A stretch of 64,000 bases of DNA from Botryllus schlosseri. Its lineage: Eukaryota. Positions within the stretch are counted from its first letter, which is position 1; each line of letters opens with the position of its first letter. The notes beneath the pieces were generated by a model, which ran no database searches, was not told the origin of the DNA, and was given only the letters and a program-made list of their open reading frames with translations. Below, in pieces: positions 12,033-58,130 of the stretch. Both the position numbers and the translations under genes were made by a program. The DNA is taken from contig CM119373.1 of assembly GCA_051294905.1 (NCBI GenBank), forward strand, positions 4,156,001-4,220,000. The letters are read 5' to 3'.

Positions 12033-12681
12033 CATGCAACAATTCTGTCTTCATCTTTCCGAAGGAACATCACGAAGACTACGTTCTGTATAAACGTACT
12101 CTGTCGGGTATGGCGTCCTCCACCGTTTGTTTCTGGATAGGATCGGTAGATGGAATCAAGCCGGCAAAAGGATCAATTCTAAGTTACTGCACGCCGGGTG
12201 CGCCGGGTTTGTCCTGCAATACCATCGCAGCTTTTTTGAAGGGAACCAAAATCGAAGCGATTATAAATGGCAAACGCTGTACTTTGATATGACTCGAAGA
12301 ATTATTTATAGGACATACATATGTTTAGTCATGTCCAAGAATGCGGCAAGAATCTACATCAACGGTACCGAGATCGGAAACATACATGATATTCCAGCAG
12401 AAGTTGCTAAAGATGGGGTGCTCATATTTGGGCAAAATCAAGATGGTAAAATCAATGGTGATATTCCTGGGAAACCGGTAGATCCTCAACAGGGTTTTTA
12501 CGGCGAGATCGGTGGGATCCATATCTGGGATAGAGTTCTTAACGCAACTCAGATTAACCGTGCGACGAACGCCATACGGTGTGGCCCTGTAGATGATGCG
12601 TTCGTGATTATCAACCAATCGAATGCATGTGTGAAAGGTAATGTGATGACTGACTTTATAGAAACTTGCTTGAATGTGTAA
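12033..12681 (+). pseudogene. Pentraxin/LamG-like terminal exon with a 1-nt frameshift near 12278
   Basis: Acceptor TTTCAG at 12027-12032, phase 1, compatible with the EGF exon ending 7831. ORF 11963 (CNNSVFIFP...TVCFWI...SILSY) switches to ORF 12127 (YICL...IYING...GVLIFGQNQD...FYGEIGGIHIWDRVL), both pentraxin motifs. Aligns with the intact paralog at 47550. Confidence 0.8.
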
Positions 12682-20679: not shown

Positions 20680-22810
20680 TTTTAACATAGCCTACTTAAA
20701 ACACCCATGAATTGTACTTTCTGAATATGATAGCAACTGACAGTAGCTAATAATAAAAAGCGTCAGAAAGCGTGTTAAATTTGAGCACATGTCTTGATTA
20801 GTGAAAATTTTGAAGCCTCTGCACAGAGCCGAAATCAGGGGCCTGGTACCATCGACCTACCAGCTTTTTTATACGGATCGCGAGCACCAGAGCTGTAAAA
20901 ACTAATGGGTATCAAAATCCACAATTAGAACTAAATTTCTTTTAAAAATCCGCAACTAACTAACTAAAACACAATGTACTAGGTGTAATTATACCGTATT
21001 GCACATGAGCTAAGAAATATTAGAGACAGAATCGGCATTTCAGGACACCGAGTTTTTGAATTGGAAATGGGAGGGGGTTCAATCCCCAAAATCTACCATG
21101 GCTACATCACTTACATCACCGATAACTCAGAGATAGCAATGCTGGTTTTATGAACTTCACATAACGAAATACAAGGATCGCGACTCACTCCAAACGACGA
21201 CAAGTGATTTTTAGTTGTTGGCAACTATATATTTTTTAGATTGCGCGACTGGACCTAAACCTGTACCTAAAACCTACACTAACAATTCATCTTCCCCAAC
21301 TAGAACTATAAAACTACACAAGAAACAGTATTAAGATGATCGTCAACTAACTAGGTTGGCAGTTGGTTTTATTTCCACGCAATCCGGCCCGCGACGCAAT
21401 TTTCAGTGTGGATAAGGGATATTCAAAAATTACTTTTTTTCTTAAATCGTACTAGCTACTTGATAAAATAGTTAGGTTACCTAATTTAAGCCTGCACACC
21501 AAATTTGCTTTAATTCCAGCAAGTAGCCGCATTGCTACAGCAGAAGAGAGTTTTTCTATCTATTATGTAAAATACATAATAAAAAAATTGAAAATTTTTT
21601 GTTTACCCCATGAAACTGTTAGGTTGTCTATAGAAACGATGTTCGCCAAATTTGATTCAATTCCAACCAGTGGAAGCGGAGTTATTGCCATCGAAAAATT
21701 TTGATTATCAATAAAATAGTATTTACGGTGACCACTTCTTAATAATCACGTAAATAGGCTACTATTTTATTCAAATCCAAATTTTTAACGAGGACACGTT
21801 TAAAAAATCCTAAACGTTAGTTGATCGAAACTGAAAACAGTGACTTTGAAATATTTACTGGGAATTTTGTTGTGCTGACTAAACTAAAAAAAGGTCATCA
21901 TTCTGATTCGTCCGTCGTCATTCGTTCAACTCCCGAATGACCCACTTTTTTGGTGACTTTTGTGGTGTTGACTAAAAAAGTAAATGTAGAGCATCACTTT
22001 GATTTGACTCGAACTTCCGCATCACCTGATTCACGTCATTTTTGCCGATTTTCATTTCAGTTTAGGACGAATCCTCCTAAACGAGTACGTATTGTAACCC
22101 TTTCCTAAATCGACAGTAGTCGATTGTACAGTAGTACACGCACATTCGTGCAGTAGGCTACAGTGTCGGTTTCCCATCGCCATGATATCCACATATGCGA
22201 CCGTTGACAGCTGCTTAGAACAATTGAGAGCCACATATGTTACATGTCTGCCGCTTAGGAATATTGCTAATGTTATGTCGTCCTTCAGTGACATGTCCGT
22301 GGTTGTCGGAATATTGTGTTTACCGAACAACAACATAGACAGCAGCAACAAAATCAGCTTGACAAGGAATAGGCTTCCAATGAATTGTCAATGAATCATG
22401 CAAAGCAGCATTACCGCGAACATGAATTCTAATCTGATGATTGAAAGTATTCCATATTAGCCAACGGCTACCATCCACCTAGCCTACTTGTTATATTTTA
22501 TCACCTGGTCCGCGAGTACAAAGGTTACAGATCCATGGCCTACTAAACTATTAGAGGAACTTTTTGCCGTTAGATAGCGCTATGGTGATACCATCAGTCT
22601 AGGTGCTGTATCACTGTAATTCCGGGAGCTGGTTGCCACGTTAATGAACACTTTCAACGCTGAAGATAAGGTTTTGCATTGTCTATGAAAAGATGGGCAC
22701 CTTTTTCGAATCATGCTGCAAATGGTCTACGTTGGTAATACTCTTCGGAGGTAGGTATATTTATCTGTTGAACCTGCATTTATCTTAAATATAATGATGT
22801 GGGCGACGTG

Positions 22811-22915
22811 AGTAGTGTAGGTACCTGGATTTCGTGCAGGCCAATCAAATTTCGCCACGTCGCCTTAATTGCCACGCCTACATTGCCACATCATCCGCCC
22901 ATTGCCGCACCTATA
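22811..22915 (+). repeat. Left terminal inverted repeat (TGCCACATCATC subrepeats continue to ~23030)
   Basis: Exact reverse complement of 38262-38366; imperfect for a further ~16 bp. Confidence 0.95.
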
Positions 22916-23284
22916 GGACACCCCTTGCCACATCATCCGCCCATTATCGCACCTATATGACGCCCATTGCCACATCATCTACGCCACATCATCAAGCGCC
23001 ACGCCTATAGTGCCACATCATCCATCCACAATATCATGATTATGCGTACTGAGCTGTTTTTGAGAATATGAATTCCCCTGTAATACACTAAACGTTGAAC
23101 TAGATTTCATAACGTCATCACAGAGGAATCAACCAACGATATTGATCTAGGTTTTAGGTTTGAAGCCTGTAGTCACCGCATTTCATACGATTCAGCGCTT
23201 TTCATGTCTCCTCACACTTTACTCAGTCTCATTGAAATAGCATTGCATAGTGTATCAGTTCATTTATTTCGAAAAAAGAGCATA

Positions 23285-23767
23285 TCAATGATATCGTTGA
23301 ACGTTATTGCGTCGATTCGCGTGCTGAAATCCTCCGGATCGGTCGATGTTTCGAGGTAGTCCGCTTTGATGCCATCCGACGCTGCGATCCGAGTTCTTGC
23401 GTTCGATCTGACCGTTTTGTTTGATGTAGCGATCACTGGCTTGTAGTATAAACGATACGAGCGGAAGGTCGGGATTAGGAACAACTACGCTGGGCGAATA
23501 GATGACGAATTCGTCAGCCGGATTCAGAGGTTGATAATGCTCGATCCCGTCGCGAGTATACGTAACGACCAAACCTCCTTCATGCTTCAGAGTGGCTCGA
23601 TATTTCTGAATGACCCCGCTTGTGGCATGTACAAAGAGTTGATCCGAGGTCAATTCTGCTCCATTCGAAGCTTCGATACGTAATTTTGTGATGTCATTAA
23701 AAAGATACAAGTCTTTTCTATAGGGCCCCTGGGCCAGAATAGTATCTCCACGGATTGCTAGACTCAT
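23285..23767 (-). CDS. Hypothetical Polinton cargo protein (~160 aa from MSLAIRGD...)
   Basis: ATG at 23767, 17 bp after the IAP stop; globular-looking composition; minus-strand AATAAA just downstream. No family recognised; the C-terminus may be frameshifted. Confidence 0.5.
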   Translation of the reverse strand: MSLAIRGDTILAQGPYRKDLYLFNDITKLRIEASNGAELTSDQLFVHATSGVIQKYRATLKHEGGLVVTYTRDGIEHYQPLNPADEFVIYSPSVVVPNPDLPLVSFILQASDRYIKQNGQIERKNSDRSVGWHQSGLPRNIDRSGGFQHANRRNNVQRYH

Positions 23768-23783
23768 TCTTTGAAAAGAAATA

Positions 23784-24365
23784 TCAAACATAAGTACAAC
23801 AGTCATCACGCAATTCCACCTCGCCATCAAATTTAGTCGAGCCTCTTCTTATATTAGGTGTCGCATAACAGACATTACGAATATATTGCAACCCCTTCCG
23901 CTTGATGAGAAAAGGACACGCAGGATAAAACTTTGCATGCTCGAGCCAGGGATCATCGCACGGCAACCAATTTTGAAACAACCCTCCGCATGAGAAACAC
24001 TTTAAATGATCCTTATAGCCCAAATAGAACAATCCGCAGTCTGCGAGCTCGGTTCCGGAGGTATTGATATTATCCGGCCACCGCATGAATGTGCTTAGTC
24101 TACGAGCATAGCGTGTCATGTTATAGAAAACGGGATCATTCAATGGGGAAACAGTTACATCTCTATGCTTCGCATAGCATTCACAAATCTTTTCCCCTCT
24201 GTTATTTATCATAGCTTGGTACTGTTCAATGGGACCCATCCGAGTTTCATCTTCGCCTATTCCTATGCTACTTGTGTTACCGATGCAAGCGCAGTTGAAT
24301 GTAGCGTAATTTGTAGGGTCCACACTACGCTTAGGTAGCGAATCGCTTTGATCAATGTTCGACAT
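23784..24365 (-). CDS. Inhibitor-of-apoptosis-like protein with a single BIR domain (193 aa)
   Basis: YARRLSTFMRWP...LADCGLFYLGYKDHLKCFSCGGLFQNWLPCDDPWLEHAKFYPACPFL is a full BIR with CX2CX16HX6C; no RING domain seen. Confidence 0.95.
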   Translation of the reverse strand: MSNIDQSDSLPKRSVDPTNYATFNCACIGNTSSIGIGEDETRMGPIEQYQAMINNRGEKICECYAKHRDVTVSPLNDPVFYNMTRYARRLSTFMRWPDNINTSGTELADCGLFYLGYKDHLKCFSCGGLFQNWLPCDDPWLEHAKFYPACPFLIKRKGLQYIRNVCYATPNIRRGSTKFDGEVELRDDCCTYV

Positions 24366-25939
24366 TGCTATCCGAATTGATATACTCTCATGATCAGTAT
24401 GCTTTATACCGATATTGAGCTATGCACCGTTGAAATATGTGCTTGGTACCGATCGAATGATAGGCCCCCTAGGTCGTATCACGGAAAATTAGAACGTCGA
24501 CTGCTCACAGAAAAAAGCCACGTAGCTCATATCCGTTCCTGGTACGTGTTATCAATAATTAGAATGTTAGTAAGAATGCCACGAGTACAATCACGCGGTG
24601 ATGATTAATACCTAAAAAATGACATCTTGACTCATGCATTAATTTAAAAAAATTAAACTATAGTGTATCGGAACTTAGTTTTACTTTACTGAGATTAGTT
24701 TTACTTTTCAACTAACTTGTCTGTCGATACATTCATTTAATTACGATCCCGAGAAGTCGGATCGATTCCCATAATATAACGATTCAGTGCCGACCTTATG
24801 TCTTATACTTTAGCTGACACTTACTCAGTCTCATTGAAATAGCATTGTATAGTGTACGAGCTCATTTATTTCGAAAAAGAGCATAATATATCAATGATAT
24901 CATTGTGCGTCATTGCATCGATTCACTTGCTGAAATCCTCCAGATTGATGTTTCGATGTCGCTTCACGAGTTCCATTCTTGTATTCATATATATCAACAA
25001 GCAGCTATGCAAATCCACAGCTTAGATAACTAGGGCTCTTGTATGTCATTAACATTATAGACAGCCCTTCGACGATATTCAACTGGCATTGATGCTTTCG
25101 ATACAGCGCAGTATGTATAACGTTACGCTGATCAATTCAATTTCAACAATGGGACCCCCGCACAATTATATGGTCGGATTTTCGTTGAATATTGACGACA
25201 CCCACAAATCGAAAGATCTCTTTTTCCTGCACATCTATGATGCAATTATCCTTCCAATGACTACGAATAACTTGAGATTCCGCAGGATTAATATCCGAAT
25301 CAAATAATACGAGCGTATCTTTTCCAGCTTTCAAAACTTACACTGACGCGTTCGGTCTATGTCGCAACACTACAATATGTGGCCATACAAAACGATGTAT
25401 AGTTATTTTTTGTAGTACCATCCCTACGACTTATTTCAGATCGCGGTTTACTGAGTAGAGCTTAATACTAATACCTGCATAATTTTTTGCATGTCTAGAA
25501 TAAGGGTAATTAAATCCATAGTAAAACGCCAGCGGCGACTAATAACGTTATAATGTAAGCTGCGACGGTGCTACTATAATGTTAGGAGCTATTAAAGCCG
25601 AATACGCTGAAGTATAGCATAGATTTTGCATATAAAATGTATACACAAATTTCCTGTTAAGGGTAGCCTCTGCGAAGCTGCTTATGCCTCGATGATCATA
25701 GTACTTATGAGCTATTGGATAGCGCATATACAATGTATCATATAGAACTTCGTCACTTTCGGATAGTACATATACCCCTGGGATAGAACTTAGACGCTAT
25801 AAAGATCGATGTTCGCCTACGAATTCTCGCTTTACTCATGTCGTATGCTCGATAAATTGTAAGTTGCGGCGAGCAACTCATTTTTAAAGTCCCTAAGACG
25901 CTATTGAAATGAACTCTGACTCGCTATTATCCTCAAACC

Positions 25940-26410
25940 ATGGAATTATCACGAGTATCACCTTCGCTCACTGAAGAAAAGGATGAAATTACATCCGGAG
26001 CATATTCCTTGGCGAGGAATTATATCATCTACGAACTCGACGACTCATGCGTTAAGGCAAATACGAAAGCAGAGAGAACCTTACGGCGAGTTGGGGATGA
26101 AATGTTTGAGCGACACCGAACTATCGTAAACGCGCTCTCTAAACGTCTTCGCTACTGTGATGTAGAAGTCGATGAAAAATATGAAGAATATTCACCCGAC
26201 GAGCGAATGTTCCTGATGATAGCTGATGGAATTTTCAAAGATACCCAAGAAAATTGGGGTAGGATTGTCTCTCTTTTTGTGGTCGCTAGCATTCTTGCTC
26301 GGAATAAGGAGGATGAACATCGCGGTGATCATATAGAAGGTATCATACAGACAGTTGGGAGTTACATTGGTAGTAGAAGACGAAAGTGGATAGCGCAAAA
26401 CGGAGGATGG
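25940..26410 (+). CDS. Bcl-2 family (Mcl-1/Bcl-2-like) protein, exon 1
   Basis: BH4-like SLARNYIIYEL, BH3 TLRRVGDE, BH1 ENWGRIVSLF, BH2 start WIAQNGGW followed immediately by the donor GTAAGC at 26411. Confidence 0.93.
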
Positions 26411-26655
26411 GTAAGCGATTTTACAAGCCTTACTAAGGATTTAGGAATTATTATCTATAGCTCGAGGTACTACGATCCCCAGAACCCTTATCATCCCTCG
26501 AACCTTAGATTCCACCTTATAATTTTGTTCTCAACTTTTCCCACAAAGCACTGTAATTTACTTTCCAAGCGCAGCGAACTTCGAATTACCTAACAAGTAG
26601 GCTACGCTAACTTTCTGTAAGATTTGGAAGGCTAACATTTTTATTATTGTTTCAG

Positions 26656-26775
26656 GACAGTTTTGTAGGATATTTCGATAACACAACATTCGGTAACAAT
26701 AAAGTTTGGAAGAGCCTCATGTTTGTTGGAATTGGACTGACGTCTATTGCAATGGCATTAACACGACAGCGATAA
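26656..26775 (+). CDS. Bcl-2 family protein, exon 2 (rest of BH2 plus C-terminal TM anchor); 196 aa spliced
   Basis: Branch point GCTAAC at 26631, T-rich tract, TTTCAG acceptor; translates DSFVGYFDNTTFGNNKVWKSLMFVGIGLTSIAMALTRQR*. Confidence 0.88.
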   Translation, partial: DSFVGYFDNTTFGNNKVWKSLMFVGIGLTSIAMALTRQR

Positions 26776-26993
26776 GTACAGCTCGAAAGGGCTTCAAAAA
26801 ACGCCCAACAAAACTTTCAAAGATTTCCATTCTTCAAAATAGATCGATCACGGGTGGCGTCAATAGTGGTTTTCGTTGCTATGGGAGCGATATGTTTACG
26901 TATAAGCAATATCGAAGTGCATTGAGTTATGGTTATTATAAAAGGATTGTGCTTGATGATGGAATTCATACATTGCCTTTATCTCTGTAATAA

Positions 26994-27611
26994 ATGGATC
27001 GAATACGTACATTGCATGCTCCGTTTCGGATGATCGTAGCTGGTCCGAGCAGTAGCGGGAAGAGTTATTTTACTTATGAGTTGGTGAAGAACGCAGAGAA
27101 GATGATTAGACCGGCTCCTGAAAAAATTGTATGGTTGTATAATAATTATCAGGCGTTATACGATAAAATGAAAGGGGTAGAATTTTCGCAAGGGCTCTCC
27201 GAGCTCAAAAAGTTACAGAAAGGAAATAGGCACGTTCTCTTGGTGATCGACGACATGATGACGGAAGCGAAAGAGGCCAGAGATCTATTCACTCGATACA
27301 GCCATCACGCAAAGATTAGTGTCGTGTTCATTTGTCAAAATTTATTCTATAGGGGCCAAGGCTTTCGGGATATGACCCTGAGCGCGAGCTATATCGTGAT
27401 ATTTAAAAATCCCCGTGATGCGAGTCAAATCAGTTTTCTTTCACGTCAAATGTTCCCGGATAAAGCCGGATTCCTTACGGAGGCTTATAAAAAGGCAACT
27501 CGAAAACCGTTCTCGTACATACTGGTCGACGTGACGCAAGAGACAGACGAAAATTATCGTCTTCGCAGCAAAATATTCCCACATCAAAAGTTGACGGTAT
27601 ATCAAGAATAA
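26994..27611 (+). CDS. Polinton DNA-packaging ATPase (A32/FtsK-like), 205 aa
   Basis: Walker A GPSSSGKS, Walker B LLVIDD, SHH...VVFICQNLF and FKNPRD motifs. Confidence 0.95.
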   Translation: MDRIRTLHAPFRMIVAGPSSSGKSYFTYELVKNAEKMIRPAPEKIVWLYNNYQALYDKMKGVEFSQGLSELKKLQKGNRHVLLVIDDMMTEAKEARDLFTRYSHHAKISVVFICQNLFYRGQGFRDMTLSASYIVIFKNPRDASQISFLSRQMFPDKAGFLTEAYKKATRKPFSYILVDVTQETDENYRLRSKIFPHQKLTVYQE

Positions 27612-27646
27612 ATACAGCTCGCGCTACAGATTTTAGGGCATTCAAC

Positions 27647-28055
27647 ATGTCGAAGAGGGGAAGTAACATATCTCGAAAACGATTGAGCGACTATCACGTT
27701 AAATTAAAACTTTTGAAAAACGCTAAAGGGAAACAGCGAAAAGAACTTTTATCGAACAATCAATTTTTAAGTTGCGTTTGCCAGTGCGTTCATAACTTGG
27801 CTTCGGGGACAGTACGTATCTCCCCGTCTAGAAAGTTGAGGCTTGGAAAACACAAATCCGATATCAGACAATTGCTGGCGCAAAAAACTCGCAGAGGTCA
27901 ACGGAGGGTGCTACAAAAGGGTGGATTCCTCTCAGGTATAAAAAATTATGATAAAATAGCAACTTTTTTCTAATCAGTCTCTTTTAGCTATATTAGGCGC
28001 TGCAATCCCCGTCATCGGGAGTCTGTTGGGTAAACTTTTCGGAAAGAATGCGTGA
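27647..28055 (+). CDS. Small basic Polinton core protein with a C-terminal amphipathic helix; predicted spliced (exons 27647-27935 and 27988-28055, 118 aa)
   Basis: KLKLLK...CVCQCVHNLASGTV...HKSDIRQL...QKGGFLS; removing GT..AG 27936-27987 gives QKGGFLSAILGAAIPVIGSLLGKLFGKNA*. Confidence 0.75.
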
Positions 28056-28386
28056 ACTACAATTCCCCGCATTTCGAAGCAAGGACGAATGGGAAAAGAA
28101 ATTTGATAAACATATATCGAAAATTAAAAGTTCTCCATTGAATGCTTCCGAGAAACTAGCTCTGTATAGGCATGGTATTGCTCAACTGAGAAACTTGAGA
28201 AAAGACGTAGACGCAGCGACCGCCCGCCCTCCCGCCGCACACACGGGGCTCGCGAGCCCCGTAGCGAAAGAAAAGCGCCCGCAAAAGAAACGCCCGCGCC
28301 GGATTCCACAACCTTCGTTTCCCTGGCTTTATAAGAGACAGCGTAAGCCTAATCCCCGTATATACGGGAAAGAATGGGAGACGTAG
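28048..28386 (+). CDS. Basic hypothetical Polinton protein (112 aa)
   Basis: Overlaps both neighbours in the compact gene array; K/R-rich C-terminus. Confidence 0.6.
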   Translation: MRELQFPAFRSKDEWEKKFDKHISKIKSSPLNASEKLALYRHGIAQLRNLRKDVDAATARPPAAHTGLASPVAKEKRPQKKRPRRIPQPSFPWLYKRQRKPNPRIYGKEWET

Positions 28387-29371
28387 ACTATTTTGATCCG
28401 AAACAGCCCAAATCGTATAGGGGCGCTTATTTGCAAAAGGAAAAAGAATGGCTTAAAGGACAAGATACTTATACTTTTCATTTTCCGTTACGTAAGAAAT
28501 TTAGGCGTGAACGTGTAGTGGTCTCCGGTATCAATGCTCAGTTTCAGAGCGATTTGATGGATCTGCAATCTATTTCAAAGTACAATAGCGGTTTTCGTTT
28601 TGTGGTGGTCGTGATTGATATTTTTAGCAAATACCTTTGGATGATAGCGATTAAAAATAAAACTGCTTCAAGTATGATTTCTGCTTTCAAACGTGTGTTT
28701 CGTGAACGCGTACCGTTAGTGTTACAAACCGATCAAGGTAGCGAATACACCAATCGCGCTTTCCAGAACTATCTAAAGGAGAACAAAGTTAGATATTTCT
28801 ATACGAGGAGCGAATTAAAATCCTCTGTCGTCGAAAGGGTGATTCGTACTATGAAGGCGTTATGTATCGATTTTTCACAAAAAATAACACGAGGAATTAC
28901 GTGAGCGCTCTCGATGACTTTACTTACTCCTACAACAGGACGTACCATCGTAGCATTGCCATGGCCCCAAACCAAGTGAATTCGTCTAATCAGGAATCGG
29001 TTTGGAGAAGACTTTACGGGTTTCAAGAAGCTAAACAACCCGACCTCGCTGTAGGAGTACCCGTCCGTATATCGAAAATTCGAAATCTTTTTGAGAAAAG
29101 CAGCCTACCCAACTGGCAACGGGAAATTTTCTATATCGCAGACGCCCAAAAGGGAGATCCCCCAATGTATCGCTTACGTGATTACGGTGGTGAAGTCATA
29201 CAGGGTAGATTTTATAGAGAGGAGCTCCAACGCGTAAAAGAACCGCAAACTTGGCGTGTCGAGAAGATTATAAGAAGGCGTAAACGCGCGGGACGAGAAC
29301 AGTATTTAGTGCGCTGGTTGGGATATGGAAGTGGATTCGACAGCTGGGTCGATAAGAAGGATATCGTCTAG
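28374..29371 (+). pseudogene. Retroviral-type (rve) integrase with C-terminal chromodomain, frameshifted at ~28860
   Basis: D-D-E motifs QSDLMD / LQTDQGSEY / SVVERVIRT in ORF 28374. MYRFFT...YNRTYHRSI and chromodomain WRVEKII...YLVRWLGYGSGFDSWV in ORF 28862. Only 2 nt (TT) separate GCG from ATG, i.e. one base is missing. Confidence 0.93.
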
Positions 29372-29534
29372 TCGGAACCTTTATCAGTTTTTGGCGCAAC
29401 TAGTAATCATACTGGTCATCGTATCGTTCTCTCTCTATAATCTTACCATTTCGAATGGGAACAAAGAGCTTTGGATATCACTGCTCTCCTCTTGCGTTGG
29501 TTATATGCTTCCGAATCCCAAGCTCAAAATATGA
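29325..29534 (+). CDS. Small two-helix membrane protein of Polintons (69 aa)
   Basis: Hydrophobic FLAQLVIILVIVSFSLYNL and LWISLLSSCVGYMLPNP, a pattern recalled from other Polintons; its stop overlaps the next ATG (ATGA). Confidence 0.65.
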   Translation: MEVDSTAGSIRRISSSRNLYQFLAQLVIILVIVSFSLYNLTISNGNKELWISLLSSCVGYMLPNPKLKI

Positions 29535-30340
29535 GCTACGTCACGCTATTTTCGAACGCTTCCATGGATAAATTTCCTGATAATACAACAGCGAGTTATT
29601 GCGTTGAACTGGACGTCCCGAAAAACGTGGAAGATACAGAAGTTTCTCTGGCTGAGATCTCCTTCCCTACGGATTATCAAAAACAGTATAGGATCACGAA
29701 GAATAGGTATGGGATCAGATCGCAAAAGAGAACAAGAAAATTTCATTTTAAATTGGGAGAATACGACTCGTTATATGACATGTATAGATCGTTGGAAAGA
29801 GACAATCCTGATGCAAAAGTAACATGTTTCCCTGAAAATCATAGTATGTCTATCTCTATACCTCATAACGAGGTAACCGACAAATTGCGACCAGAGACGG
29901 ACATAGGGCATAGTAGCTTGCTACGCCTCGGAGAATTGTACGGTGCTCTTATGTATAAGGAAACGAAGGAGGAGTTATTGGTGTTTCATTTCCCGAATAC
30001 TAATTGTACATTGTGGAATTATTTTTTCACCGAGGGTATCATTCATTTGAACTTTCGCATGCGACATGATCCGACTATCGATTTCGTTTATGTTCATTGT
30101 AATATCATTGAGCCACAAGAAGATAGCGGTAGGCTCTTACCGTTGTTACGCGTCGTACAGGTAAACGATCGTAAATCATTTTCGAAATATTACACGAAGC
30201 CTTTTTATTTCCCTGTTAATATAAATAGGCTAGAACGTGTCGAAATATCGCTACTTGATGAGAAGGGACAGAAAATACCCTTTCGAAGTTCTCCTTCGAG
30301 TGTTGTATTGCATTTTCGTAGACGGGGAGTTGCATTATGA
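29531..30340 (+). CDS. Minor capsid (penton/PX-like) protein 1, 269 aa
   Basis: YVTLFSNASMDKFPDNT..., VSLAEISFP, FVYVHCNIIEPQ..G..LPLLRVV, YFPV...IPF...VVLHFRR: Polinton single-jelly-roll motifs. Start taken at the ATG at 29531. Confidence 0.88.
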   Translation: MSYVTLFSNASMDKFPDNTTASYCVELDVPKNVEDTEVSLAEISFPTDYQKQYRITKNRYGIRSQKRTRKFHFKLGEYDSLYDMYRSLERDNPDAKVTCFPENHSMSISIPHNEVTDKLRPETDIGHSSLLRLGELYGALMYKETKEELLVFHFPNTNCTLWNYFFTEGIIHLNFRMRHDPTIDFVYVHCNIIEPQEDSGRLLPLLRVVQVNDRKSFSKYYTKPFYFPVNINRLERVEISLLDEKGQKIPFRSSPSSVVLHFRRRGVAL

Positions 30341-31059
30341 AATATATTCATATTACGTCACACGAGTCTGATTTTACTATCGATCTCGCGAAACCGATAG
30401 ATTCTGGTGAATGGGAGATAGGGCTTGCCGAGTTGTCTTTTAAAAATAATTTTCAGCCCACGTTCGAGCCTTACGACGGCTTATTATGGTACGTGAATGA
30501 TGCGGAAGGCGATAATAATTTTTATTATTTCCCGGCTGGTGATTATCATGATAAAATTAGTTTGATGAAGCGTATCAATCACGATCAGAAAAAAGCACGA
30601 TTTATTTGGGTAGATGGTTCTGGTCCGGTCTTGATAGCGGGACCCTACAAGAGTTCCAGCGGTCCGAGACTTTTCATGGATAATAGAAACCCCGTTCTCA
30701 GAGGAGGCGCTCGTTCGGAGGTAGAGCTAGATGGTGGATTACATAGACGAAGAAAAATTCACTTTCAAGGGGAACCTGTGTCCGTGACCAACGTTTTAGT
30801 TTATACGGATGTCATCACACCTCAAATTGTAGGTGATACGAGTGCGCCTCTACTACGCAATATCCGCGTTACGACAGGAATAGATGAATATCAGCATATG
30901 CTATTCAAAAAAATATATTTCTTTCCTCTGAATACGGAGCGAGTAAGCGAGATACGCGTTATGCTTCGTGATGATAAAGGCGAAGCTATAAAGTTTGGGA
31001 ACGCGCCTCTTCATCTCACACTTGCTTTGAGACATCATGAGGAGTCATTATTGCTGTGA
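30337..31059 (+). CDS. Minor capsid (penton/PX-like) protein 2, 240 aa
   Basis: FTIDLAKPI..GEWEIGLAEL, VLVYTDVITPQIVGDTSAPLLRNI, YFFPL...IRVMLRDDKGEAIKF; paralogous to the preceding ORF. Confidence 0.88.
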   Translation: MKYIHITSHESDFTIDLAKPIDSGEWEIGLAELSFKNNFQPTFEPYDGLLWYVNDAEGDNNFYYFPAGDYHDKISLMKRINHDQKKARFIWVDGSGPVLIAGPYKSSSGPRLFMDNRNPVLRGGARSEVELDGGLHRRRKIHFQGEPVSVTNVLVYTDVITPQIVGDTSAPLLRNIRVTTGIDEYQHMLFKKIYFFPLNTERVSEIRVMLRDDKGEAIKFGNAPLHLTLALRHHEESLLL

Positions 31060-31408
31060 TCGGGAGGCGTTCAGAAACTATTATCACCAACAGAGCGGTG
31101 GTGATATCAATTTTTTTCGGGGTAAAGTGCAGAGAGGTCATGGACTTGGAAACTTATTTCGTTCGTTCGGAAGAAGCGTTATGCCCCTAATTTCGAAAGG
31201 TGCAAAATCACTCGGGAAGCGTCTACTACATACCGGTGCGCAAGTAGCCTCTGATGTTCTTAATGGAGAGAATGTCGGTGATAGTCTTAAAATACGCGGC
31301 AAAGAAGCCGCTGGGAACGCTCTCGATTCTTTACTGAGAAAAAGAAAAATGCCAAGACGGGGTCGTAAAATCGCGAAAAAGAGACGTCGCAAAGATATTT
31401 TCGATTAA
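31037..31408 (+). CDS. Conserved Polinton core/membrane-active protein (cupiennin- or adenovirus pVI-like), 123 aa
   Basis: YYHQQSGG...QRGHGLGNLFRSFGRSVMPLISKGAKSLGK, an amphipathic helix after QxGxG motifs; basic C-terminal tail. Function is inference. Confidence 0.75.
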   Translation: MRSHYCCDREAFRNYYHQQSGGDINFFRGKVQRGHGLGNLFRSFGRSVMPLISKGAKSLGKRLLHTGAQVASDVLNGENVGDSLKIRGKEAAGNALDSLLRKRKMPRRGRKIAKKRRRKDIFD

Positions 31409-31457
31409 ATATATATTGCACGGCGATAAGCATCATTTGTTACTTGAGACTTGATAG

Positions 31458-32735
31458 ATGGCGGAGTTAATTCATGTACAGTCCCCGGAGGGGGTACATC
31501 CCTCATTGGATTTATTTCACATTCCCGCGACACAGACTAGCGTTGAAAAGAAAAGAATCATCAAGATAGCGCCGATTTCGAACAACTCTAGTGTGATAAC
31601 ATTCCGCTTTGAAGGCTCAGAAGACTTTAACGATTTGAGCGAGAGCTATTTCTTATTTCATTTACAATTAAAGAAAGATGGCGAAGCAATCGGACCCGAC
31701 GATGATGTTGGAGTTGTAAATAATATCTTGGATTCCTTGATTTCTCAACTACAAATTAAAGTCGCTAACGAAACTTTGAAACAAGATATAAAAGTACAGT
31801 GTTATTCGTCCTATCTGCACAATTTATTCGCTCCGCTTGACGTGCAAAGTACCACACTGAGGGCCTCAGGATGGAGAAAAGATACTTTAGGAGAAATGAA
31901 TACGATTGGTGGAACTAACGCCTCGGCTAACAAAGGATATTACAACAGGAGTAAAGCCTATAAGGATGATAACGTGGTGGAAATACGTGCAAAAATCCAT
32001 CACGGACTATGTCTGCAAGACCGCTACATCCTACATGACGTGCCTCTCGAGTTTGAGCTTACCTTGAATCCGAAAAGCTTTTTCATGATGGGAGATGCTG
32101 GCGGTCAATTCACCTTAACGAAAAAGGAATTACAGTTATGTAGCGTACGAGTCAGCGACGATGTGAAGACAGCGATGATGGTGAATGCCCAGGCGAAATA
32201 TCCGTATATCGACATGAAATTGATCACCCGAACATTTGCGGCTGCTACGACGCAGATAGATATCGGGAATCTATATAGCGGGACTCTACCTTCTCGCCTA
32301 ATCATCGGAATGGTAGCTACGAAAGCCTTTCAAGGAGATGTTACGAAAAATCCTTATAATTTCATACACAATAATATGCAACGACTCGAACTGAAACTGA
32401 ACGGATTTCTGATTCCGGAGGGAGGTTATGAGCTAGATTTCGATAAGGGTCATTACACGGAGCTTTACCATAACCGGATTGAGGGTACGGGTGCAATGGA
32501 GAGAAACACAGGACTCCTAACACCTGAAGAGTTCGCTAGTGGTTTCTGTCTACTGGTTTATAATTTGCGCCCTGATGATTTGGATGATTGCTTTGACTTA
32601 CAAAAGAGTGGTGCCTTAAGTTTACGGATCACATTTCCTGCTGGCGGGCTAACAGCGGAAACTACTTTGCTCTGTTTCATGGAATTCCAGAAGCTATTGC
32701 AAATCAGTAGCAGTCGTAAAGTGACCGTGCTATGA
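31458..32735 (+). CDS. Major capsid protein (double jelly-roll, PY/hexon-like), 425 aa
   Basis: LIH..S.E.....LDLFHIPATQTSVE N-terminus; VNNILDSLISQL; LPSRLIIGMV...AFQGD..KNPYNF; typical size and position before the protease. Confidence 0.92.
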   Translation: MAELIHVQSPEGVHPSLDLFHIPATQTSVEKKRIIKIAPISNNSSVITFRFEGSEDFNDLSESYFLFHLQLKKDGEAIGPDDDVGVVNNILDSLISQLQIKVANETLKQDIKVQCYSSYLHNLFAPLDVQSTTLRASGWRKDTLGEMNTIGGTNASANKGYYNRSKAYKDDNVVEIRAKIHHGLCLQDRYILHDVPLEFELTLNPKSFFMMGDAGGQFTLTKKELQLCSVRVSDDVKTAMMVNAQAKYPYIDMKLITRTFAAATTQIDIGNLYSGTLPSRLIIGMVATKAFQGDVTKNPYNFIHNNMQRLELKLNGFLIPEGGYELDFDKGHYTELYHNRIEGTGAMERNTGLLTPEEFASGFCLLVYNLRPDDLDDCFDLQKSGALSLRITFPAGGLTAETTLLCFMEFQKLLQISSSRKVTVL

Positions 32736-33187
32736 ACGGGGATGAAATAGACCAAATATTGTGGTGCTGCGAGTCAACAAAACATATTTTCCTTGGCACA
32801 TTTCCTATCGATCGACTGCCGAGGCGACCCCCTCCTCCTTATGCTATCGTGATCAATTATGACGAAGCTCGAAAAATCGGAAGTCACTGGATATGCATTT
32901 ACGCGGATGAGGATGAGACACATTTTCACGATAGTTTTGGCTTAATGCCACTGAAATACGAGATTGCCTGCTTTATAGAACCAGAAAATTATACCTGCTC
33001 TATAAAGCGTCTGCAGCACAAACGTTCCAGAGCTTGCGGTCATCATTGTCTAAGCTTTATCGTCCATAAGGCGCGCGGATGGAGTACGGAACGTTATTTA
33101 AATTCCTTCGGTGAAGATCATCGCAAGAATGATTCGATCGTGCGACGCTTCGTCAAGGAGCTGAAGCAAGAATATGAAATTGTGTAA
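32732..33187 (+). CDS. Adenain-like cysteine (maturation) protease, 151 aa
   Basis: IVINYD...GSHW (His), HDSFG (Asp), LQ...ACGHHC (Gln, Cys); AATAAA at ~33199. Confidence 0.93.
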   Translation: MNGDEIDQILWCCESTKHIFLGTFPIDRLPRRPPPPYAIVINYDEARKIGSHWICIYADEDETHFHDSFGLMPLKYEIACFIEPENYTCSIKRLQHKRSRACGHHCLSFIVHKARGWSTERYLNSFGEDHRKNDSIVRRFVKELKQEYEIV

Positions 33188-33574
33188 ATGTATATGCGAA
33201 TAAAATCAATAGTTTCAAAGTTTGCTTAGTACGTTTAAGGGCGATATTCGCTACGTTCATTATAGCAATCATCTCAAAGTAGTAGACTCTAAATCAGCAG
33301 TAGCGACTTGCTTTCGGTTAGGTGATAGTGGCTACATATTACCATTATCTAGCAAGAACCAGGAATTTGTATTGAGTGACTTCGCTCCTACAGTAAACGC
33401 AGCTTACATTACGGCGGTACTGAACATCGAGTAATAAGTGGGACTATGCAGGCTACCCTTAATACGAATTTGCATTTTGCTGGTACAATCTATGCTATAG
33501 TTGAGCGACTTTGATACGACCTCGGCACACTTCTTTGATATAGCTGCGCAAAGATGTAGCCTTGAACGCTGGCT

Positions 33575-36500
33575 TGCCTTGTCATTATATGCTTGTAACT
33601 AGTTCCAGGCTTGCGGTGCTAGTCTTCTTGGCTGCATGAAATAGGATGTTTCAGCTTAAAACTCAACGCATTAGCATGCCGAATTTGTAACCATGGCGAG
33701 ATTCGAGTATTAAGCGAGGCTAGATAGTCTACCCTTGACAGAGAACTTGCATATACATTCGAATTTATGCGACTTCGGCTATATTGCCGGTTAACATTAT
33801 AGCCGTGCACAGAACTCATTATTACGTTATTAGGTATTTAAATGATGCGATATAGGGGAAATCTCGGTGTAATTCAATCTGCGCGCATTATCCATGTATG
33901 CTCCAATGCGTTTTGCGGCTTTAGTATAGGTATTGGATCTAATATATTCTATAAAACATGTACGTTGCTATATATTTATCTTAATCCGAAGTGCATTGCT
34001 GCATCGAAAAATTATAGCTATATGCGGTACGCTGTCGATTTTTCAATATTAGTCAAGAAATGAAATAGCCCACCTTCAGTGTTGCGTAATCTGCCTTGTC
34101 ATTATATGCTTGTAACTAGTTCCAGGCTTGCGGTGCTAGTCTTCTTGGCTGTGTGAAATAGGATGTTTCAGCTTAAAACTCAACGCATTAGCATGCCTAA
34201 TTTATAACCACAGCGAGATTCGAGTAATAACCGAGCCTAGATAGTCTACCTTTAACAGAAAACTTGCATATACATTCGAATTTATGCGACTTCGGCTATA
34301 TTGTCGGTTAACATTATAGCCGTGCACAGAACTCATTATTACGTTATTAGGTATTTAAATGATGCGATATAGGGGAAATCTCGGTGTAATTCAATCTGCG
34401 CGCATTATCCATGTATGCTCCAATGCGTTTTGCGGCTTTAGTATAGGTATTGGATCTAATATATTCTATAAAACATGTACGTTGCTATATATTTATCTTA
34501 ATCCGAAGTGCATTGCTGCATCGAAAAAATTATAGCTATATGCGGTACGCTGTCGATTTTTCAATATTAGTCAAGAAATGAAATAGCCCACCTTCAGTGT
34601 TGCGTAATCTGCCTTGTCACTATATGCTTGTTCCGGGCTTGCTTGCGGTACTAGTCTTCTTGGCTGCGTGAAATAGGATGTTTCAGCTTAAAACTCAACG
34701 CATTAGCATGCCTAATTTATAACCACAGCGAGATTCGAGTAATAACCGAGCCTAGATAGTCTACCTTTAACAGAAAACTTGCATATACATTGGAATTTGT
34801 GCGACTTCGGCTATATTGTCGGTTAACATTATAGCCGTGCACAGAACTCATTATTACGTTATTAGGTATTTAAATGATGCGATATAGGGGAAATCTCGCT
34901 GTAATTCAATCTGTGCTCATTATCCATGTATGCTCCAATGCGTTTTGCGGCTTTAGTATAGGTATTGGATCTAATATATTCTATAAAACATCTACGTTGC
35001 TATATATTATATATCTTAATCCTAAGTGCATTGCTGCATTGAAAAATTATAGCTATATGCGGTACGCTGTCGATTTTTCAGTATACTCAAGAAATGAAAT
35101 AGCTCATCTTCAGTGTTGCGTAATCTGCCTTGTCACTATATGCTTGTTCCGGGCTTGCTTGCGGTACTAGTCTTCTTGGCTGCGCGAAATAGGATGTTTC
35201 AGCTTAAAACTCAACGCATTAGCATGCCTAATTTATAACCACAGCGAGATTCGAGTAATAACCGAGCCTAGATAGTCTACCTTTAACAGAAAACTTGCAT
35301 ATACATTCGAATTTGTGCGACTTCGGCTATATTGTCGGTTAACATTATAGCCGTGCACAGAACTCATTATTACGTTATTAGGTATTTAAATGATGCGGTA
35401 TAGGGGAAATCTCGCTGTAATTCAATCTGTGCGCATTATCCATGTATGCTCCAATGCGTTTTGCGGCTTTAGTATAGGTATTGGATCTAATATATTCTAT
35501 AAAACATGTACGTTGCTATATATTTATCTTAATCCGAAGTGCATTGCTGCATCGAAAAATTATAGCTATATGCGGTACGCTGTCGATTTTTCAATATTAG
35601 TCAAGAAATGAAATAGCCCACCTTCAGTGTTTCGTAATCTGCCTTGTCATTATATGCTTGTTCCGGCCTTGCTTGCGGTGCTAGTCTTCTTGGCTGCGTG
35701 AAATAGGATGTTTCAGCTTAAAACTCAACGCATTAGCATGCCTAATTTATAACCACAGCGAGATTCGAGTAATAACCGAGCCTAGATAGTCTACCTTTAA
35801 CAGAAAACTTGCATATACATTCGAATTTGTGCGACTTCGGCTATATTGTCGGTTAACATTATAGCCGTGCACAGAACTCATTATTACGTTATTAGCTATT
35901 TAAATGATGCGATATAGGGGAAATCTCGCTGTAATTCAATCTGTGCGCATTATCCATGTATGCTCCAATGCGTTTTGCGGCTTTAGTATAGGTATTGGAT
36001 CTAATATATTCTATAAAACATCTACGTTGCTATATATTATATATCTTAATCCTAAGTGCATTGCTGCATTGAAAAATTATAGCTATATGCGGTACGCTGT
36101 CGATTTTTCAGTATACTCAAGAAATGAAATAGCCCACCTTCAGTGTTGCGTAATCTGCCTTGTCACTATATGCTTGTTCCGGGCTTGCTTGCGGTACTAG
36201 TCTTCTTGGCTGCGCGAAATAGGATGTTTCAGCTTAAAACTCAACGCATTAGAATGCCTAATTTATAACCACAGCGAGATTCGAGTAATAACCGAGCCTA
36301 GATAGTCTACCTTTAACAGAAAACTTGCATATACATTCGAATTTGTGCGACTTCGGCTATATTGTCGGTTAACATTATAGCCGTGCACAGAACTCATTAT
36401 TACGTTATTAGGTATTTAAATGATGCGGTATAGGGGAAATCTCGCTGTAATTCAATCTGTGCGCATTATCCATGTATGCTCCAATGCGTTTTGCGGCTTT

Positions 36501-37436
36501 AGTATAGGTATTGGATCTAATATATTCTATAAAACATGTACGTTGCTATATATTTATCTTAATCCGAAGTGCATTGCTGCATCGAAAAATTATAGCTATA
36601 TGCGGTTCGCTGTCGATTTTTCAATATTAGTCAAGAAATGAAATAGCCCACCTTCAGTGTTGCGTAATCTGCCTTGTCATTATATGCTTGTTCCGGCCTT
36701 GCTTGCGGTGCTAGTCTTCTTGGCTGCGTGAAATAGGATGTTTCAGCTTAAAACTCAACGCATTAGCATGCCTAATTTATAACCACAGCGAGATTCGAGT
36801 AATAACCGAGCCTAGATAGTCTACCTTTAACAGAAAACTTGCATATACATTCGAATTTGTGCGACTTCGGCTATATTGTCGGTTAACATTATAGCCGTGC
36901 ACAGAACTCATTATTACGTTATTAGCTATTTAAATGATGCGATATAGGGGAAATCTCGGTGTAATTCAATCTGCGCCCATTATCCATGTATGCTCCAATG
37001 CGTTTGCGGCTTTAGTATAGGTATTGGATCTAATATATTCTATAAAACATCTACGTTGCTATATATTATATATCTTAATCCGAAGTGCATTGCTGCATTG
37101 AAAAATTATAGCTATATGCGGTACGCTGTCGATTTTTCAGTATAGTCAAGAAATGAAATAGCCCACCTTCAGTGTTGCGTAATCTGCTTTGTCACTATAT
37201 GCTTGTTCCGGGCTTGCTTGCGGTACTAGTCTTCTTGGCTGCGTGAAATAGGATGTTTCAGCTTAAAACTCAACGCATTAGCATGCCTAATTTATAACCA
37301 CAGCGAGATTCGAGTAATAACCGAGCCTAGATAGTCTACCTTTAACAGAAAACTTGCATATACATTCGAATTTGTGCGACTTCGGCTATATTGCCGGTTA
37401 ACATTATAGCCACGCACAGAACTCATTATTACGTTA
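33575..37436. repeat. Tandem array of ~515-bp units (~7.5 copies) inside the Polinton
   Basis: Anchor ATGATGCG recurs at 33842, 34359, 34874, 35390, 35904, 36420 and 36934; near-identical units in two alternating variants. Confidence 0.97.
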
Positions 37437-38261
37437 GCTATTGGAGAAATCTCAACGTAAATCAATCTGCGTTCACAATTCGCGTAAGCTAATGCTGCAT
37501 CGAGAAATTATAGCTACATTTAGTTTAAATTGGCACGAAAATACATTGATCTTACCTTATGCCTGCGATGCCTGCATCCCTGCGCACATGGCAATACTTG
37601 TAATAGAAATGTGAAGTTTTCAGAATGCGAATTGCTTTACGTCGGAACTAAACATTCTAATTCGTAACGCCAGCGCGGCGTTTTCTTGGAAACGCAACTT
37701 TATTTAGAATGTTCTAATTCACTTTGTCGATGTGGCGCAACTTTTTTGGAATCGTAAGCAACTGTATTCGTGGCACATTTACACGCGTCAATTTCTTGGA
37801 ATAGTATTCAGCAATATGCGCGTGAGCTTTCGCGTCATTGTAGACATTTATGGTGGCGATATCTGCATTATCAAGTTGCATTCGCAGAATTCCTCAAAAT
37901 CATTGACTAATTAATGATGACACAGGTGTTATAAGTGCACACGAACATAGTCTTACATTTATGTGTTATTACTCGAAAAAGGTGTTGTCTCGGAATTTAA
38001 GAGAGAATCGGCGGTTATATTCTCAAAACAGCTCAATACGGCTAGTTTGCTCAATAGCCTGGTGGTGAGCGATGTGAAATTATACCCAACCAAACCAGGT
38101 TCGATTCTAGCTTAGGTAAGTTTTGACGTGGCAATGAGTGACATAGGTGTAGCAATCGACATCGCGCGGGTTGATGATGTGCAGCGTATAGATGCGGCAA
38201 TCAATGCGGTGATGATGTGGCAATGGATGATGTGGCACTATAGACGTGGCAATGGGTGTGG

Positions 38262-38366
38262 TATAGGTGCGGCAATGGGCGGATGATGTGGCAATGTAGG
38301 CGTGGCAATTAAGGCGACGTGGCGAAATTTGATTGGCCTGCACGAAATCCAGGTACCTACACTACT
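38262..38366 (-). repeat. Right terminal inverted repeat
   Basis: Reverse complement of 22811-22915; followed by the TSD GACGTG. Confidence 0.95.
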
Positions 38367-40427
38367 GACGTGCCCTATTGGCGCTTCAAGTTATTGTGGT
38401 ATGACATTATGCTGCTTACATTGATGGATAGTATTCGGACCCCTCTAGTCCGAACCTTAGTTACGCCCGTGTTTTAGGCTATGATACGACGGTGATCTTG
38501 TAATACTCAAACGCTAGACGTACTGTATAAAAACAGTGGGACCTATGTGAGTGCCTATTACGCGCTAGCTTTGAGGATAGTCATTGTTGGTAGTAGAATT
38601 ACGAAAAACTATACGCCTGGAGCACTACAGAAAACGCGGTAACAATAAAAATTGCAAAGGACTGCTACGCACACTCACTCAATCACCATGATACTTGTCC
38701 TCATGATGTGTACATCATCGAGGTAAAACAGATAGATGTATTTTAACGACGATACCCACCTTTAACACCGTAATGAGCCGCTTATGACTTACAATTTACA
38801 CGTGTAAGGCCATCACAATTGCTAGCGACAGCACTCACTTCCTCGATCGTGCGTACAGTCATAAACATTACGAGGCCATATCACTGTGTGTCAATTGCAG
38901 ACTGTAGGCATAAGAATACCATAGTTCTTTAGATGGAACCTGACGCCTTCAGCCCCTCGCGGTAGGTTCTTCACGCAAGTGATGTAATATTTATGTTGCT
39001 AAAAGCCGTTTGTTTTGGATACGGCCTTACAGTCGATACATCAATCGCTAGCTGGTATCCTAATACTGCGTCGCTGTTCGTACGCCGTCTTTACAACAAA
39101 ACAAAAAAGACTGAAGGAAGCGAATAAAAATAGCGTGTAAGGCGTGAAAAGACAGACAGCCGAGAAGAGAAGCATCTGCCACTGTTGTAGGTGGATGTTA
39201 GATTGATAAACAATACTTGGTCGTGTCGACATCCTGATATCTGTTCATTACACCCCGATCTGTCGTGTAATTTACCATCAATAGTGTAGGCCTACGTTGT
39301 GTGCCGCGAGCATATGAAAAAATAAAACCGCGGATTAAGGTGATAAGTTTGATCTACCGTATTACAACATGGGGAAGTTTAATGTTGTATGTGATGGGAC
39401 AATTGAAAAGAAAATTAGCAAATGTTCGCCTTCATAACTTGCCAGTAAAGTATACAATGTTCTTCGTTGGTGAATATCTTCCTATATCAATGCCCAGATT
39501 TCAACATCTAGAAACCGCAAACAATTACAAACTCTATACCACACAGGAACTGTGAACTCATCGAATATGAACGGCTGTAAGAAATCCTACTTTGTAAGTT
39601 GCGCACGCTTTACTTTATGCGTAGAGTGAATACTAATTAGCCCTCAAGTTTACCGGACTACGACCAGACATATCGATCGTGCCTTCCGTCACATGATACC
39701 CCATTTTGTCGCTTGCATTTTTATGTTATCCTCTGTTACGTTTCATTCAGTGTGCATGCCTCCTCTCCACATCGGCTAGGGCCTTGGCCCACGTATATGT
39801 TTGATGTCGAAGACTACTTCAGGTCAATTCGACACCTTCCTATATTTTCGTCGTATCGCAGTCTTGTGGTATTTTGAAATGATGAAATTATTATTAAACT
39901 GATCGTGACTATGGCTAAGACGTGGCGTATAGTAAGCAGTGGTCAAAACGATTTGATAGCTGTAAATAAACCAATGGGCCTTTGCATGACTGTTAATGAA
40001 ATGGATATGCAGAAATGTAATAAAACTATCCACATAGTGCAGACCTGACCATTCCAATATATCTGGCATTAGAGTTACACCTTGATCCGAAAATTCGCAA
40101 GGGTGCTATAGTAAGGATAGGTCCATCGTCGGTGATTAATCATATTACTGCTCTATTTCTCACAGGACATGAATGGTGAGACACAGCATTTTGTCAATGG
40201 ATCTACATTCAATACTGATTGTGGATTGTGGTGATGTATAAGACATTAATTTCTGATATGCGACAGTTGTCCATTTTCAAGTGTTGAACCTAACTGTAGA
40301 CTGATGTCTTCGACTTTTATTTCCAGACTTCGTAACATGGTGTTATGTAGGCCTGTCTGTAAACCATGTCTAGTTTAATCTGAAGGGTATTTTAAGCGTA
40401 AGTGTCAAGGTTCAAGTTTTAAAATCA

Positions 40428-47390: not shown

Positions 47391-47549
47391 ATTGACCAAA
47401 AAAACGGGTGCATTATCATATGTATGATTTGAGTGAGTGTCATGACATCCGCGGAATCCACGAGACTGGCTCTTGGAACCCCTAGTGTTCCATGGAACGC
47501 CGGTCCAGAACCACCGCTTTAAAGGTCAACGACACTCTTGTGTTTTCAG

Positions 47550-48190
47550 AGTGTAACAATTCCATCTTCAAATTTCCGAATGAAAACCATTTGGATTACG
47601 TCCAGTACAGCGGCACGCTACAGAGTATGGCGTCGTTTTCCACGTGTTTCTGGATAAGTTCAGTGAACGAAAGCAAACCGGCCAAGGGCTCAATTATAAG
47701 TTACTGTGCATTCGGTTCAGCATATTGTAATACGTTCGGAATAGAAGTGTATGGAAACGAACTGAGGTACTGGAATGAGAAGACGTTGAACTGGGATGCG
47801 TATCCCATGCGTCGCATGATTACTTATCAGACACATATCTGTCTACTCGTAAAACATTCTGCATTGCAAATCTACATCAACGCTACCATGATCGACGGCA
47901 GACTCGGAGCTGCATCACCAATACCAGGTGGTGGCGTGCTGATTTTCGGGCAGAATCAAGATCACGATTACGTTGGTGTTCGGCCTGGTAAACCGGATCA
48001 TTTTGACCAAGGTTTCTACGGTATAATGGAAGGTTTACGTATCTGGAATAAAGCTCTCAGTGCATCTGAAATACATCGTATGTATAGGTGCGATGGAAGC
48101 AGTTGTGAGGATGACGCAATCGTGATTGTTAACCAATCGAACACATGCTTGCAAGGTCAGGTGATTGCAAACTGCAGTGTACCTTGTTAG
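47550..48190 (+). CDS. Intact pentraxin/LamG-like terminal exon (paralog of 12033-12681)
   Basis: TTTTCAG acceptor, phase 1; CNNSIFKFP...FSTCFWI...THICL...IYINA...GGVLIFGQNQD...FYGIMEGLRIWNKAL. Confidence 0.88.
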
Positions 48191-49690: not shown

Positions 49691-49763
49691 CATCTCCGCC
49701 GGGATTCGAACCCGGAACCTCTGGATTAGAAGTCCAGCGCGCTATCCATTTCGCTACGGAGAC
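49691..49763 (-). tRNA. trnR(UCU): tRNA-Arg, anticodon UCU, intronless
   Basis: Minus strand GTCTCCGTAGCGAAATGGATAGCGCGCTGGACTTCTAATCCAGAGGTTCCGGGTTCGAATCCCGGCGGAGATG folds as a 73-nt cloverleaf; a T4 terminator lies ~10 nt downstream. Confidence 0.95.
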
Positions 49764-57900: not shown

Positions 57901-58130
57901 ATACTCAACTTTCATAGCGGAATTACCGAGCTAAACATTGAATGCGCAACTTGAAGATTGGTTCACAGGTGTAGGGCAGTATGACAATGGAACACATCAA
58001 ATTTCATCACACATTTCATGATGGAACACCTTTAAAACTAACGCAGTTCTATACCAACTTCGCGTGAATCTGTTTGCGGGAGCGTAGCACGTACCTATGC
58101 GTGATCAACTTTAGTGATGGAATTACATAT
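54977..58130. repeat. Satellite of ~200-bp diverged monomers with a ~1389-bp higher-order unit
   Basis: The AAATTTCATCACACAT-like anchor recurs at 55204, 55400, 55607, 55809, 56018, 56220...; near-identical blocks are offset by 1388-1389 bp (ORFs 55190/56579, 56034/57422). Confidence 0.93.

Follow-up and report, generated by a model that had tools for sequence, protein, structure and literature searches.

What is a tandem array of about 3.9 kb doing in a Polinton that appears to have lost its polymerase gene: does it restore a genome length that particles could package, or is it one more repeat array inside a transposon? The window, a 64,000-nucleotide stretch of Botryllus schlosseri DNA, contains such an element near its center. 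Here we describe the array and its host element, trace the origin of the repeated unit, and weigh the explanations for its amplification.

Structure of the tandem array

The array spans 33575–37436 on the forward strand and is real. In the assembly, it comprises seven full units of 514–518 bp and a 252-bp half unit (7.5 units), which start at 33575, 34092, 34610, 35126, 35640, 36156, 36670, and 37185 and measure 517, 518, 516, 514, 516, 514, 515, and 252 bp, with the last copy ending at 37436. The array is 3,862 bp long, which is a quarter of the element and 3,345 bp more than a single unit would contribute. It lies after a protease-like ORF (end at 33187) and before the right terminal inverted repeat (TIR, 38243–38366), which confirms the coordinates, units, and position of the near-identical non-coding repeats that an earlier note had placed between the protease and the right TIR. 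The array was missed by TRF because the longest TRF period was 500; a separate repeat search recovered eight copies.

Any two full units differ by 3–30 substitutions and 0–6 gaps, with U1 being the most divergent. Units U3, U5, and U7 alternate with U4 and U6, defining a higher-order dimer of ~1030 bp, and seven columns follow the pattern 0010101. This alternation indicates that the last expansions copied the dimer; the array grew stepwise. The two halves of the unit are not repeats of each other.

The longest ATG frames in the array encode 66–98 amino acids, and the three that were scanned have no Pfam match. Searches of the array against Rfam gave no match, and the predicted DNA folding of the unit is no better than that of shuffled sequences (z 0.43). 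As far as tested, the array thus appears to be non-coding, with neither a coding nor an RNA signal. A sigma-70 scan, not relevant to an animal host, scored below chance. In a raw RNA run, of which ~3% of the reads were sampled, the depth on the unit (0.26–0.44) is similar to that on the core genes, at thin coverage.

The array resides in a Polinton derivative

The element, hereafter E1, extends from 22811 to 38366 (15,556 bp), with AGTAGT/ACTACT ends. It is flanked by a 6-bp target-site duplication, with identical hexamers on the forward strand at 22805–22810 and 38367–38372. The left TIR (22811–22934, forward strand), which begins with AGTAGT, and the right TIR (reverse strand), which ends with ACTACT, are both 124 bp long and pair with four mismatches. 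Host pentraxin/laminin-G-like ORFs are found on both sides of E1, together with one tRNA gene (12289–12681, 47492–48190, and 49691–49763).

The left part of E1 carries two genes on the reverse strand. The first is a 180-aa ORF with no assigned function (23285–23827), whose 3′ end is partly duplicated at 24814–24959 (83% alike); it has no match in Pfam, PDB, or NCBIfam and no Atlas match above 0.79. RNA reads from run X23, mostly 85–95% alike, pile up at 23263–23615, at the 3′ end of this ORF, with a poly-T loose end, indicating that relatives of the ORF are transcribed. The second is an IAP gene with a BIR domain (23784–24365; PF00653, E 1.4e-18), flanked by two partial copies of the neighboring gene end (23211–25495). 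A Bcl-2 homologue follows on the forward strand (25940–26775; PF00452, E 1.2e-20), with a likely GT-AG intron at 26411–26655, a call based on the splice-site letters and the downstream frame. The gene thus seemingly keeps a 245-bp intron, a sign that it was captured as DNA; according to the available text of PMC8097293, introns are absent from the genes of intact vertebrate elements. Bcl2 and IAP homologues have already been reported in adintoviruses, as stated in the accessible part of PMC8502044.

The remaining genes are all on the forward strand. An A32-type packaging ATPase (26994–27611; PF04665, E 8e-9) is followed by an rve integrase with a chromodomain (28374–29371; PF00665 and PF00385), which is split into two overlapping frames with a break near 28860 and forms one ORF in the relatives L005, L009, L017, and L018. 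Two paralogous ORFs at 29531–31059 (paralogy E 5e-12) have homologues beside the major capsid protein (MCP) in related loci, and we take them to be probable minor capsid (penton) genes. The MCP itself (31458–32735) has a weak PF21738 match (E 0.02), 4433 relatives at E ≤ 0.001, and an Atlas similarity of 0.99 to a cluster in which 24% of the members carry the DJR family. The next ORF (32732–33187), presumably an adenain-like protease, is named from its position and catalytic pattern; a homologue comes after the MCP in 9 of the 10 loci that are at least 4 kb long, and the ORF has a weak PDB match (E 0.53). Neither the two penton-like ORFs nor the protease-like ORF had a family match.

E1 therefore has the (AGT)2…(ACT)2 TIRs, 6-bp target-site duplication, integrase, packaging ATPase, and jelly-roll major capsid protein of a Polinton/Maverick. 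Together with its presumed protease and its size, these features liken it to the autonomous Polintons/Mavericks and adintoviruses described in the available texts of PMC8097293 and PMC8502044. In contrast to autonomous Polintons, a quarter of E1 is a tandem array and its protein-primed polB (pPolB) is reduced to a C-terminal remnant. E1 is thus best filed as a non-autonomous Polinton derivative.

A remnant marks the probable site of polymerase loss

None of 42 full-length pPolB queries (tblastn, E ≤ 0.5) matched inside E1; the control locus L021 scored ~400 bits with the profile. A profile built from 23 pPolB C-termini ranked the frame 26703–26987 first among the 1183 frames of the window (E 0.001, against 1.2 for the next), a score reached by none of 2000 shuffles (1861 of the 2000 were reported). 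The matching segment of ~65 codons (26787–26990, forward strand) lies between the two genes, some 12 bp downstream of the Bcl-2 stop and immediately upstream of the ATPase start. Pfam gave it no support, and a search for closer relatives of it found none. With modest confidence, we read it as a remnant of pPolB that marks the site of polymerase loss. A reading of "no trace of polB" was dropped, as the weak in-element match of the full-length scan (iE 0.045) is this same segment.

In vertebrate Mavericks, polB and the ATPase belong to a common module, according to the available text of PMC8097293. On our reading, polB would have been lost from a position to the left of the ATPase. The array lies 6.6 kb from that site and would not be a substitute put in its place. 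In size, the array and its net gain compare with the 3.4–4.2 kb of 23 full-length pPolB relatives, in agreement with the earlier observation that the array is about as long as a pPolB gene.

The repeated unit derives from the element itself

A motif of ~150 bp within the unit recurs in inverted orientation at 25532–25706 (reverse strand), between the leftward and rightward gene blocks of E1. The two are ~63% alike, with a score of 87 against a maximum of 48 in 200 shuffles. Directly before the array lies an older diverged copy of the motif (33414–33551, forward strand; score 49, reached by 0 of 150 shuffles), and directly after it a diverged continuation of the unit (37439–37613, forward strand; score 54, 0 of 300 shuffles). 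The CpG observed/expected ratio is 1.29 in the array and 1.36 in the element genes, compared with 1.02 in both host flanks, and the 64-kb window contains no copy of the unit outside E1. The motif homologues at both ends, the element-like CpG content, and the confinement of the unit to E1 within the window identify it as the element's own subterminal DNA. Its source region may have belonged to an inverted end that was formerly longer.

Sibling copies in other samples

Sequencing runs containing related copies were compared with the window; 24 runs were listed, 20 of them with part of the element (11 studies), and four were compared over 22000–34091, an interval that includes one unit. A joint between a unit end and a unit start is present in all three DNA-type contig runs (X3, X5, and X8, from three studies), with letters unlike those of the window junction. 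This indicates that sibling copies carry arrays too, and that the array is not an assembly artefact. In X5, four long contigs tile the core at 0.6% divergence from the window, one of them continuous from the Bcl-2 stop across the remnant as far as 29248. Across sibling contigs, divergence amounts to 0.6–1.3% in the core and 1.7–2.9% in non-coding DNA, and the oldest splits among units (up to 30 of 517) exceed both. Furthermore, a flank contig of X3 departs from the window precisely at 22810, which is what an empty site would look like. Taken together, this suggests a polB-less family that moved after polB was lost. No polB branch is found among the loose ends listed, contigs being prone to drop rare variants. 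The lower X5 depth upstream of 26770 was considered as a sign of polB-bearing siblings and rejected, since the Bcl-2 stop is itself within the core contig.

The ratios of summed depth between unit and core, which are not copy numbers, are 2.9, 1.3, and 4.2 by bin and 0.5–5.0 by site, compared with 7.5 units in the window; siblings seem to hold fewer units, roughly about 3–5. Joints at 23208–25495 and 23490–25087, which may belong to other elements, define relatives that are 1.6–2.3 kb shorter at the left end. Sibling contigs without the 1.6 or 2.3 kb around the IAP gene indicate that the IAP module comes and goes.

In X3, the summed depth is ~4,100 on the core and 22 in the adjacent host flank, a ~190-fold excess that is not a copy number. 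It could stem from numerous copies in the chromosomes, free DNA that replicates, or enrichment; E1 may still be amplified in some animals. In X5 and X8 (organisms B and C), the core is ~99% identical to the window and no contig covers the host flank 22404–22810, which may be due to low depth of the host, to filtering, or to a different host species.

A second element in the window and distant relatives

A separate element, E2, begins at 51939 and continues to the window end at 64000, its right end lying beyond. It has an AGTAGT end and TIR subrepeats 89% like those of E1, and lacks any ATG ORF of 100 aa. Arrays of a ~202-bp unit, unrelated to the unit of E1, fill 4393 of the 7555 bp of each arm (58%), and the palindrome center at 59515 implies a full length of 15,154 bp. 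An alignment of the 515-bp and 202-bp units reached a score also attained by 3 of 200 shuffles, so no kinship is demonstrable. E2 also contains a second-order duplication of 1,389 bp, and a perfect palindrome of 1,628 bp whose loop measures 44 nt. After a gap of 100 N (from 61166), the 2,735 bp at 61266–64000 are identical, in the same orientation, to 55487–58221; this repeat probably reflects an artefact of scaffold overlap at the palindrome.

Metagenomes yielded 21 loci with an MCP identity of 25–30%, one of which carries polB. Protein scans of IMG/VR for close relatives returned no loci, a 23-nt pattern from the unit was absent from the viral and prokaryotic contigs searched, and no phage sequence matched the unit. 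One of the distant loci (L009, 26% MCP identity) shows, at its contig edge (1–1430), 15-bp subunits in blocks of 260–307 bp, and has no polB match in the 11.6 kb of its incomplete contig. In another polinton-like contig, a TATA-binding-protein gene adjoins the protease (L017:6980–7522).

Genome length and the case for compensation

With a single unit, E1 would measure 12.2 kb. The inferred ancestor, with one unit and a whole polB of 3.4–4.2 kb, would measure 15.4–16.2 kb, a sum that takes polB sizes from distant relatives and assumes that the left cassette with IAP and Bcl-2 was already there. The present length of E1 is 96–101% of that value, and the one-unit form would be 75–79%. For adenovirus, the available text of PMC4189039 describes genomes below 75% that rearrange upward, a virion stability that needs ~90%, and 15-kb vectors that are packaged as direct and inverted dimers. 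The one-unit form would thus be at about the adenovirus lower packaging limit. It would also be below the range of intact vertebrate Mavericks, which measure 12.7–24.6 kb (mean 16.9 ± 1.7 kb), a distribution read by the authors as a size constraint in the available text of PMC8097293.

The earlier note had proposed that amplification compensates for the loss of polB. The lengths and the adenovirus precedent fit this proposal, whereas sibling depths suggest fewer units, left ends that differ by about 2 kb speak against a fixed length, and the array is not at the polB site. On this analysis, we tentatively favor a length-restoring amplification in a helper-dependent Polinton, at a confidence slightly short of even. 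On this view, E1 still has its integrase and full set of virion genes, all but a remnant of pPolB has disappeared from between Bcl-2 and the ATPase, and copying would depend on another Polinton's polymerase. A 515-bp piece of the right subterminal region was amplified head to tail in steps, monomers first and dimers later, probably by unequal recombination, and the family would have spread on after the polB loss, as the sibling contigs suggest. Longer arrays may have been favored as they brought the genome from ~77% to ~98% of its former length, by adenovirus analogy into the stably packaged range. The youngest duplications (3 of 514) could be later than the insertion.

Alternative explanations

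The alternative that survives best, though we consider it unlikely, is neutral expansion, in which unequal crossing-over lengthens and shortens a subterminal duplication that was already there, and the match with the size of polB is a coincidence. The older diverged copies on both flanks of the array, and the dimer-level duplication with a divergent edge unit, are the usual pattern of drift, and the apparent copy number differs across runs. Moreover, arrays are common inside transposons (available texts of PMC4079207 and PMC8268682), and repeats of at least 60 bp also occur in 2 of the 8 distant relatives scanned. Against coincidence, the length of E1 is back within 4% of that of its inferred ancestor, and a second helper-dependent element, E2, implies a similar length with unrelated repeats.

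We consider it improbable that the array serves the dosage of a cis-element, with the ~150-bp motif acting as an enhancer, promoter, or packaging signal whose extra copies help E1 compete with its helper. The motif is found at both ends of E1 in inverted orientation, with blocks of identity kept despite ~37% divergence, and its left copy lies between divergent gene blocks. Among U2–U7, 3 of 26 variation events fall inside the motif against 7.6 expected (p 0.03), but U1 was omitted post hoc, the depletion vanishes when it is included (10 against 10.5 expected), and 61 of 369 windows are equally low. The portion of E2 inside the window lacks the motif. Protein-primed replication begins at the termini, which also speaks against this reading.

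The earlier note had likened the array to the hr regions of baculoviruses, which have an imperfect palindrome core in each repeat and act as enhancers or origins. As in hr regions, a non-coding unit is repeated and its motif is present at several places in the genome; in contrast, the unit of E1 shows no palindrome excess. Of 500 shuffles, 126, 48, and 279 attained its counts of 6-, 8-, and 10-mer palindromes, and 4 of 60 matched its best hairpin, so that the comparison gains no support from these tests. Herpesvirus amplicons with repeated origin or packaging segments offer a precedent for dosage and combine both effects (available text of PMC12111873); the length and dosage readings are not exclusive.

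It is very improbable that the array is satellite DNA of the host that landed in the element, or that it arose as an error of assembly. A likely overlap artefact does lie nearby in E2, but the units of the array differ in a patterned way, their junction recurs in three runs from three studies, and their composition is element-like. Of the marks of a host satellite, copies outside the element are not found within the 64 kb, and high abundance is not seen, the depth of the units being within ~5-fold of that of the core genes.

Relation to known systems

Length-restoring amplification can be compared with several known cases. PolB-less insect polintons with 3.2-kb LINE or gypsy cargo have been described (available text of 10.1101/2025.02.07.637071). 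Like E1, these are TIR-flanked, lack polB, carry a block of other DNA of similar size, and apparently stayed mobile. In contrast, their filler is a foreign transposon, whereas that of E1 is its own subterminal DNA at a distance from the polB scar; the available text of that study does not discuss length compensation. Undersized helper-dependent adenovirus and HSV-1 vectors, in the available texts of PMC4189039, PMC7226970, and PMC12111873, likewise regain length by duplication or need a stuffer. Such vectors are engineered and their packaging is measured directly, whereas E1 is natural and integrated and its packaging would follow by inference only. Kilobase arrays that grew out of repeats belonging to the element itself, subterminal or internal, also occur in Tetris (TIR-220) and in the central repeats of oyster Helentrons (PMC4079207 and PMC8268682, as far as available), elements that have no capsid and hence no packaging constraint.

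The main texts of PMC8502044 and PMC8097293, whose supplements may show cases, do not describe tandem arrays, and the available parts of PMC11131425, PMC11161782, and PMC6855363 contain nothing on a self-derived array for polB loss. In the open literature searched, supplements aside, we found no Polinton reported in which such an array makes up for a lost polB. PolB-less polintons with cargo and arrays in transposons are known already, and a self-derived, length-restoring array in a Polinton would be new; the stuffer role of the array is plausible but unproven.

Implications for animal Polintons

A further-reaching and somewhat doubtful reading is that E1 represents a natural defective-interfering animal polintovirus. 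It would supply capsid, integrase, and two anti-apoptosis genes and borrow the polymerase of a helper, and the size of the capsid would have driven a 3.3-kb rebuild from its own terminal cis-region.

Should the length relation not hold, the array would be of the ordinary kind that transposons carry. According to the available text of PMC8097293, no particles of Mavericks have been seen so far, and a length floor on polymerase-less copies would amount to indirect evidence for a packaged stage. If true, the defective-interfering reading of E1, together with gene-less palindromes of similar length, would be evidence at the genome level for a particle stage of animal Polintons.
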